Assembly: GCF_003334255.1 (NCBI RefSeq)
Contig: NZ_QOWU01000095.1
From: Escherichia coli
Lineage (GTDB): Bacteria > Pseudomonadota > Gammaproteobacteria > Enterobacterales > Enterobacteriaceae
Reading direction: 5' to 3' (one strand)
DNA: 7,641 nucleotides
Part shown: in pieces, positions 5,870 through 7,641 of the stretch
Position numbering within the stretch: the first letter of the stretch is position 1
Layout: every line of letters starts with the position of its first letter
Translations under genes and position numbers: made by a program
Notes under the pieces: model-generated
Database searches by the model: none
Told to the model about the DNA's origin: nothing
Seen by the model: only the letters and a program-made list of their open reading frames with translations

Positions 5870-7641
5870 ATGAGCACTGATAAAGAAGAATTTGCACTAT
5901 ATTGCGAAGCAAAAAATGACAAAGTAAGAAAACGCCTAGGAATTAAAGGTGGTTTTTACTGGACTACAGCAAAAAAATTATCTGTTGCAATCTCCCGCTG
6001 CATTACCGCAATGGATGACAACGATTATGATGAAGACGACTTTAAAAAACCCGTCCGCGTCAATTTGCCCGTTGTTGACGACCTTCCGCCAGAAGGCGTG
6101 TTTGATACTGAATTCTGCAACCGCTATGAAAAAGGCGGGAAAGATGGCATCACAATGACATTTATCGGCCCTTCCCCCTCTGTTCAGGACAAACCAGCCA
6201 GCACTGACAATACCAACATCAACGGCGAAGCCATGACTGAGATTGAGGAGAGCATGCTTCTGCCTGTCTCCGGTCAGGAACTGCCCATTCGTTGGCTTGC
6301 TCAACACGGCAGCGAAAAACCAGTAACGCACGTTTCACGCGACGAACTCCAGGCATTACACATTGCACGGGCTGAAGAACTACCGGCTGTTACTGCCCTG
6401 GCTATTTCGCATAAAACCAGTCTGCTCGACTCGCTGGAGATTCGCGACCTCCACAAACTGGTTCGTGACACTGACAAAGTTTTCCCTAATCCTGGTAATT
6501 CAGACCTGGGACTAATAACTGCTTTTTTCGAAGCATACCTAGACGCTGACTACACTGATCGGGGTCTGCTGACAAAAGAGTGGATGAAAGGAAATCGTGT
6601 TTCACGCATCACCCGCACGGCTTCCGGTGCTAATGCTGGCGGTGGGAACAAAACCGATCGCAATCCGAATTTAGTACACACCCTCGACACACTGGATGTG
6701 GAGATTGCAGCAGCCACACTTCCGATGGATTTTAATATTTATGAAATTCCGGGCAGCGTTTATCGTCGCGCAAAAGAAGTAGTCCTGAACAAAGAAAGTC
6801 CGTTCAAAGAATGGTCCGCAGCACTTCGTGCAACCCCGGGTATTCTGGACTATTCCCGCGCCGCTATTTTTGCACTTATCCGAAGCGCACACCCTGAATT
6901 TTATCACTACCCGGGACGCCTTCAGGGGTATATCAACGCCTATTTGACGGAAACTGATCACGAGAACCCCAGCAAGGAAACTCTCACAGCTGCCCGGCAT
7001 ACGCCGGAAAAAGATATCCTGGAAGAAATTAACCGCGAGGTGGTTACTGAGCGTGAAACAGAAGAAGAAAAACCACAACCATCTGACGCAATGGCAGGTG
7101 AACAGGCAACAACTGAAACAATGGAACCGGATACAACTGAACATGGCCAGAACGCGCAGTCGCTGGATGCTCAGTCGCAGGTGAGTTCCGCTAACCAAGT
7201 AAAAGTCACCGCTGACGAAGTAAACAAAATTATGCAGGCAGCCAATATCAGCCAGCCTGACGCCGATAAGTTGCTTGCTGCATCACGTGGTGAATTTGTT
7301 GAAGGGATTAGTGACCCGAATGATCCGAAATGGGTTAAGGGGCTCCAGACCCGCGATTCTGTGAACCAGAACCAGCATGAATCGGAACGGAACTACCAAA
7401 AAGCGGAACAAAACAGTCCAAATGCGTTACAAAACGAGCCAGAAACGAAACAGCCTGAACCAGTAGCGCAACAGGAAGTGGAAAAAGTCTGCACCGCCTG
7501 CGGTCAGACCGGCGGCGGCAACTGCCCTGATTGTGGCGCGGTGATGGGCGACGCAACATACCAAGAAACATTCGATGAAGAGTATCAGGTTGAAGTTCAG
7601 GAAGATGATCCGGAGGAAATGGAAGGCGCTGAACATCCACA
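5870..7641 (+). CDS. recE: Long ORF truncated by the window end (at least 590 codons, no stop): RecE-like (exonuclease VIII family) N-terminal region, acidic, with an embedded CxxC-x7-CxxC motif
   Basis: Frame checked codon by codon from ATG 5870 (first start after the in-frame TGA at 5855..5857; GAGG 10 nt upstream) to position 7641 with no stop. It is absent from the ORF track, presumably because it has no stop in the window. Blocks such as [41 protein letters not shown] and [28 protein letters not shown] match recalled Rac RecE N-terminal sequence. The catalytic C-terminal domain would lie beyond the window. Confidence 0.6.

Follow-up and report, generated by a model that had tools for sequence, protein, structure and literature searches.

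A RecE-like N-terminal region apparently joined to a DEDDh exonuclease domain in a dicB-type prophage of Escherichia coli

Analysis of a 7,641-nucleotide stretch of Escherichia coli DNA (contig NZ_QOWU01000095.1, assembly GCF_003334255.1; hereafter the window), which belongs to a dicB-type lambdoid prophage, identified a large gene that starts at ATG 5870 on the plus strand and runs off the end of the window. Extension through nucleotide-identical genomes gave a gene of 813 codons. Judged by its homologues, its product is a mosaic of three modules, namely a RecE-type N-terminal region (module A, residues 1-443), a segment common to RecE and to intact YdfE of the Qin prophage (module B, residues 444-617) and a DEDDh nuclease domain (module C, residues 632-803). 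By the same comparisons, the enzyme is RecE-like only in its non-catalytic part and has drawn its nuclease from a different superfamily, presumably with a polarity opposite to that of RecE. The mosaic protein probably acts as a DEDDh exonuclease for 3′-end DNA processing in a Chi-rich phage without a recombination (Rec) module.

The frame itself was unambiguous. Translation of 5870-7641 gave 590 stop-free codons, with 13-52 stops in each of the five alternative frames, and a run of this length would be expected by chance with a probability of ∼1.4e-13 from the base composition. An in-frame TGA lies at 5855, and ATG 5870 is the next start codon; the GAGG upstream of it (Table 1) is a putative ribosome-binding site. 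Base composition by codon position was also coding-like (38.6% G at the first position, 38.2% A at the second). The frame was missing from a program-made list of open reading frames (ORFs) only because it has no stop before 7641, and an ORF finder that requires a stop thus overlooks the largest gene of the window. The second-longest coding stretch encodes 358 residues (1483..2559, minus strand).

An earlier note on this DNA, made from the letters alone, had drawn attention to this unlisted frame, to its rank as the largest gene and to the acidity of its product, and all three points held (105 Asp and Glu vs 60 Lys and Arg in the 590 residues). The enrichment in Gln, Glu, Thr and Pro that it described was concentrated in residues 401-590 (37% of residues, vs 24% in residues 1-400). 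Since Tandem Repeats Finder detected no repeats in 5800-7641, the acidic stretches are not repeat arrays. Four minus-strand ORFs within the frame had been set aside in the same note as Cys/Phe-rich shadows. All four exist, their translations are low-complexity, and RefSeq annotates none of them in the near-identical genome of strain G1/2; they are shadows of the coding frame and not genes. The Cys/Phe richness, on the other hand, applied to only two of them (Cys+Phe 14%, 23%, 10% and 23%).

The rest of the gene was recovered from G1/2 (NZ_CP060083.1). The window as a whole matched E. coli chromosomes and was 99.9% identical to this genome, the nucleotides of 5870-7641 matched it with zero differences, and at least 80% of the window was covered in 442 genomes. 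The G1/2 coding sequence of 2442 nt encodes 813 residues (WP_115202336.1, designated ‘exonuclease’ in RefSeq) and supplies the stop codon that the earlier note had proposed to seek by rightward extension. Thus 73% of the gene lies inside the window, with another 223 codons and the stop to the right of 7641. The window ends 42 residues before the start of the catalytic domain.

We ran AlphaFold2 on the in-window part of the product with an 80-sequence alignment. Residues 1-105 and 125-400 were modelled with a predicted local distance difference test (pLDDT) score mostly >90. Disordered acidic linkers were placed at 408-444, 492-536 and 561-615, the last two with pLDDT <50, and a two-helix element at 448-472 (helices 448-459 and 465-472). 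Module A, which is specific to this family, is accordingly modelled as well folded, and module B is predicted to be a largely disordered acidic linker that carries the two-helix element and a Cys4 motif. The motif is a putative zinc knuckle, which would bind metal. A sequence search of the PDB with the 590 in-window residues returned no match. The ratio of nonsynonymous to synonymous substitution rates (dN/dS) was 0.18 in the conserved block. Beyond the window, module C matched the Rv2179c-like family PF16473 over model positions 2-177 of 177 (E 5.1e-67).

The earlier note had likened blocks of the product to the N-terminal region of Rac RecE (K-12 b1350), and this resemblance was borne out by BLASTP: residues 58-617 aligned with RecE residues 50-592 at 59% identity over 567 aligned positions. 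The two proteins have in common the PF06630 region, a 21-letter sequence block and the Cys4 knuckle, and each is encoded in a lambdoid early-left operon, near xis and int. Nothing aligned past RecE residue 592, however, and the first ∼57 residues differ. In RecE, the nuclease is formed by the ∼260 C-terminal residues, and what the N-terminus does has been called unclear (PMC11610958). It is this C-terminal PD-(D/E)xK 5′-3′ exonuclease domain that is replaced by the DEDDh domain in the present protein. The RecE-type enzyme implied by the note was therefore not recovered: a PD-(D/E)xK profile, which it had proposed to look for in the full product, gave way to PF16473, and in place of an adjacent recT-like annealase gene, xis and int come next in the nucleotide-identical genome.

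The best NCBIfam match to the 590 in-window residues was the RecE equivalog NF007259 (915 bits, profile positions 1-577), but the full 813 residues scored 942 bits over positions 1-600 of this 877-position profile and so failed its cut-off of 1269 bits. NCBIfam yielded no model for the C-terminal domain by itself. K-12 recE DNA was only 75-92% identical, in patches, with 91.9% identity over window positions 6208-6661. A ‘RecE’ name taken from the visible N-terminal part would thus be wrong, as the catalytic domain, the presumed polarity and the partner gene all differ.

All catalytic residues of a DEDDh nuclease were present in module C. D636, E638, D736, H786 and D791 aligned with D7, E9, D119, H186 and D191, the catalytic residues of T4 DexA (PMC12153337), and the motifs also aligned with mEp235 Exo. 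T4 DexA (8KEL) is the nearest solved relative. Module C falls in the same DEDDh family as DexA (28% identity) and the E. coli protein EcD, or ‘HREX’ (37%), but is fused behind a large N-terminal region, unlike either of them. A stand-alone homologue, mEp235 gp30, was 58% identical to module C (E 1e-75). Such stand-alone DnaQ-like ‘Exo’ proteins (mEp235 gp30, epsilon34) have the same DEDDh motifs and are likewise encoded in an early-left operon. They are ∼180 residues long, and the mEp235 version lies within an Erf-SSB-Exo-Abc2 recombination module, whereas the present domain follows a ∼620-residue RecE-type region in a prophage without a Rec module. DnaQ-like 3′-5′ nucleases have been described as one type of Rec-module nuclease (PMC12315714).

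The distal half of the gene was traced to the Qin prophage. In K-12, the gene after ydfD, ydfE, is a pseudogene interrupted by IS2, with a reading frame of 306 codons, and the earlier note had suggested that the window might hold an intact version of this position. K-12 ydfE as the same gene was rejected at the sequence level, BLASTP of the product against K-12 YdfE giving no significant similarity (best E 4.2). Strain KL53, on the other hand, carries a prophage at the true Qin site beside rspB, with dicB, ydfD, an 823-residue exonuclease, xis and int. Residues 1-256 of the 823-residue protein (WP_000048342.1) show 100% identity to K-12 YdfE, which identifies it as intact YdfE. BLASTP against this intact YdfE showed identity from residue ∼444 to the C-terminus, DEDDh domain included, and window positions 7200-7641 were 99.8% nucleotide-identical to the KL53 ydfE-type gene.

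The part shared with intact YdfE is limited to the C-terminal 370 residues, which are missing from K-12. The N-terminal ∼443 residues are of another sequence type, with weak similarity around 270-376. Both genes occupy the same position, directly after dicB-ydfD and ahead of xis-int, but Qin is integrated at rspB and the present prophage at potB/potC. The suggestion of an intact ydfE thus stood for the position and for everything from residue ∼444 on, and fell for the N-terminal region. As these alignments have it, the gene is an allele at the ydfE position, with a Qin-type distal half and the first ∼443 codons replaced by a RecE-type cassette, and it shows what the IS2-disrupted K-12 ydfE formerly encoded. 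A literature search on ydfE as a Qin exonuclease found no papers.

The surrounding DNA places the gene in a dicBF (Qin-type) early-left operon. The corresponding G1/2 region is a ∼45-kb lambda-like prophage, located between potB and potC, in which the lambda-like structural genes form a complete set. The early-left operon of this prophage consists of repressor, ydfA, ydfB, ydfC, (dicF), dicB, a DUF1482/ydfD-like gene, ‘exonuclease’, xis and int, followed by host potC; the record of vB_EcoS-640R1 has the same dicB, ydfD, exo, xis, int, potC context. Window positions 4261-5861 were 96.6% identical to K-12 Qin, until 8 nt before the ATG. Strand and order agree with ydfABC-dicF-dicB-ydfD, without an intervening terminator-like site, and a simple scan of the 93-nt gap between the ydfD-like gene and ATG 5870 revealed neither a terminator-like nor a plus-strand promoter-like site. 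The gene had been described in the earlier note as the distal gene of a dicB-type operon. This is true within the window, where it comes after dicF-dicB-ydfD; beyond the window, xis and int follow.

No recT, annealase (single-strand annealing protein), single-stranded DNA-binding protein or anti-RecBCD gene is annotated across the whole ∼45-kb G1/2 prophage. The prophage contains 12 Chi sites vs 1.55 in shuffles, all of them within the 18-kb early/lysis half; two lie in the window, at 2738-2745 and 2783-2790 on the minus strand, where 0.2 were expected. A class of lambdoids that lack a Rec module, have abundant Chi and rely on RecBCD has been described (PMC12315714), and the present prophage resembles this class.

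These findings suggest the following scheme. The gene would be transcribed with the repressor-controlled dicBF early-left operon upon de-repression of the prophage. Module C would remove nucleotides from 3′-OH DNA ends by two-metal catalysis, with a polarity opposite to that of RecE, and modules A and B would contribute here what they contribute in RecE, be it targeting, oligomerisation or partner docking. The enzyme would then trim 3′ ends or flaps while phage DNA undergoes recombination and replication dependent on host RecBCD and RecA, and would perform no RecET-style 5′ resection and annealing.

Several points weigh against this scheme. The catalytic domain and the stop lie outside the window and were taken from genomes identical over the ORF, so that the source contig itself might formally have another 3′ end. 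What modules A and B contribute is unclear even for RecE (PMC11610958). DnaQ-type 3′-5′ nucleases are noted usually to inhibit homologous recombination (PMC12315714). Both the polarity and the preference for DNA over RNA are deduced from homologues of 28-58% identity, and membership of the operon is assigned from gene order and a simple terminator scan.

A survey of related proteins bears on how modules A and B may be used. The in-window 590 residues matched 265 representative clusters among 1.84 billion proteins, and AFDB50 returned same-family members only, such as ‘Exodeoxyribonuclease VIII of prophage CP-933R’. The family is narrow and enterobacterial, because only these 265 clusters were matched. 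Local phmmer typing of representatives of at least 550 residues assigned the DEDDh domain to 13 and the RecE PD-(D/E)xK domain to 22, each behind the N-module. Many of the remaining representatives form a third group, in which the N-module is followed by a tail of 150-370 residues without Pfam assignment. A Pfam search on 18 members with unexplained tails found no domain, apart from one RecT fusion and one PDDEXK-like DUF3799. These proteins may be the nuclease-less ‘RecE-2’ described previously (PMC12315714).

A neat exchange of domains emerges from the survey: one N-terminal region is joined to either a 5′-3′ or a 3′-5′ nuclease. It could be proposed that the RecE-type N-region (A+B) is a portable targeting or adaptor module carried by nucleases of opposite polarity: PD-(D/E)xK 5′-3′ in RecE, DEDDh 3′-5′ here and unassigned tails in the third group. 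The DEDDh version would then be annealase-free and would modulate host RecBCD/Chi recombination or exclude incoming phage DNA. We hold this proposal to be rather unlikely; if true, comparison of the fusions would make the function of the RecE N-terminus directly testable. The natural swaps between N-module and nuclease offer a modest handle on that function. The gene itself is ordinary, very common and already annotated and catalogued. The 813-residue architecture is abundant, with many clusters at 99-100% identity and one on at least 1000 contigs, and a query across the junction of module B and the DEDDh domain found matches in 4741 of 5426 complete E. coli genomes.

The DEDDh domain might instead serve in anti-phage defence, selectively degrading the 5-hydroxymethylcytosine (5hmC) DNA of superinfecting T-even phages in the manner of HREX/EcD. 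Phage resistance is a known effect of dicB, the neighbouring gene, and module C was 37% identical (E 1e-35) to a 189-residue EcD-like protein recovered via published primers. EcD itself is reported to cleave 5hmC DNA and to protect against T4 (PMC12153337). Yet the HREX pattern, with W152 and D169 kept and D90 lost, was not seen here. The 5hmC-recognition pair was not conserved, DexA W152 being replaced by Y756 and D169 by K or T (an assignment that varies with the alignment, which is uncertain in the D169 loop), and the tetramer residue D90, absent in EcD, was retained as D707. HREX-type 5hmC specificity was rated unlikely from this residue comparison. PADLOC returned no match, the position of the gene, in a repressed lytic-type operon beside xis and int, is not that of a lysogen-expressed moron, and the closest homologue, at 58% identity, is located in a recombination module. 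We therefore regard a defence role as improbable.

The 189-residue ORF used for this comparison (MIDTETLGNGPDAAIF...TPFLNI) occurs on five IMG/VR contigs. Its match to the published EcD forward primer is exact; the printed reverse primer has one additional A but otherwise matches as well. Residue 78 is Ala, as stated for EcD (PMC12153337). Predicted viral or prophage contigs thus also carry EcD, the HREX defence protein.

A 3′-5′ exoribonuclease acting on RNA, for example on the 3′ ends of operon transcripts or on host RNAs, would be suggested by the best Pfam family, ‘Rv2179c-like 3′-5′ exoribonuclease’, and by the name ‘3′-5′ exoribonuclease’ in several NCBI records. The namesake of PF16473, Rv2179c of M. 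tuberculosis, is a stand-alone bacterial exoribonuclease. The present domain matches the family hidden Markov model over its full length but is part of a fusion, and its substrate is more likely to be DNA. The characterised phage and enterobacterial relatives, T4 DexA and EcD, are DNases, the stand-alone homologues sit within DNA recombination modules, and the region to which module C is fused corresponds to the N-terminus of a DNA exonuclease. An RNA target thus seems quite improbable. Literature searches on Rv2179c found no papers linking it to prophages and nothing relevant to phage fusions.

Decay of the gene into a functionless remnant of a defective prophage has its precedents: IS2 interrupts K-12 ydfE, PPompW_EH2246 has a frameshifted copy, fragments are numerous among database entries, and another gene of the window carries a 7-bp frameshifting duplication. 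The frame is nevertheless intact over the 590 codons in the window and, in many clusters, over all 813, the low dN/dS of the conserved block and the full set of catalytic residues speak for constraint, and the G1/2 host prophage retains all its lambda-like structural genes, which makes decay very improbable.

The last alternative, a true RecE (exonuclease VIII) orthologue, that is a 5′-3′ PD-(D/E)xK double-stranded DNA exonuclease with adjacent RecT, can call upon the N-terminal identity, the PF06630 match, the rank of the RecE equivalog in NCBIfam and the name ‘exodeoxyribonuclease VIII’ given to the protein in some databases, but has a negligible probability in view of an alignment that stops before the RecE catalytic domain, a DEDDh C-terminus, a score below the equivalog cut-off, a prophage with xis and int downstream and no recT, and the patchy DNA identity to K-12 recE vs 100% to the G1/2 gene; a RecE/RecT system is ruled out for the nucleotide-identical genomes.

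The exonuclease gene, its modules and the neighbouring features of the operon are listed in Table 1.

Table 1. Positions of the exonuclease gene, its parts and adjacent features in the window
Feature	Position	Strand	Remarks
First 590 codons of the 813-codon prophage exonuclease gene	5870..7641	+	Open frame; 100% nucleotide identity to NZ_CP060083.1 3127862..3130303
Module A, RecE-type N-terminal, residues 1-443	5870..7198	+	Residues 1-105 and 125-400 predicted folded; acidic disordered linker after
Exonuc_VIII (PF06630) match, residues 57-189	6038..6436	+	hmmscan i-Evalue 5.3e-35
Module B, in-window part, residues 444-590 of 444-617	7199..7641	+	Common to RecE and intact Qin YdfE
Cys-x2-Cys ... 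Cys-x2-Cys motif (C541, C544, C552, C555)	7490..7534	+	Kept in K-12 RecE alignment as CNACGQTGGDNCPDCG
GAGG, Shine-Dalgarno-like motif	5856..5859	+	Read from sequence; 10 nt 5′ of ATG 5870
Four antisense ORFs	5978..6331, 6671..7198, 7335..7640, 7427..7636	-	ORF list
DicF small RNA	5174..5225	+	Rfam RF00039, 76.7 bits vs gathering score 48; between ydfC and dicB
dicB, cell division inhibitor	5400..5588	+	RefSeq annotation of the near-identical genome, mapped; ORF ending 5588
ydfD-like DUF1482 gene	5585..5776	+	Annotation and ORF list; directly upstream of the exonuclease gene

RefSeq does not annotate DicF in the near-identical genome. The window differed from G1/2 at two places only. One is a 7-bp tandem duplication, CTTCACT, near 1069-1075, in a region with minus-strand ORFs 1071..1442 and 599..1012. 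This duplication frameshifts the last 17 residues of a DUF977 protein, giving 123 residues instead of 140, and also permits upstream extension of the downstream ORF to a GTG. The other is a single-base difference in a C-run near 5094, which is intergenic and upstream of dicF.

The record ON470612.1 (Escherichia phage vB_EcoS-640R1, ‘phage, partial genome’) continues past int into potC, potD, ymfA, ycfZ, cobB, nagK and lolE, and represents a prophage with its chromosomal flank rather than a packaged genome. Finally, the cI/DicA-like repressor at 3368-4006 (plus strand) differs between records in the choice of start codon: the ORF in the window encodes 212 residues, RefSeq annotates a 113-residue ‘LexA family protein’ in G1/2, and vB_EcoS-640R1 has a 199-residue cI.

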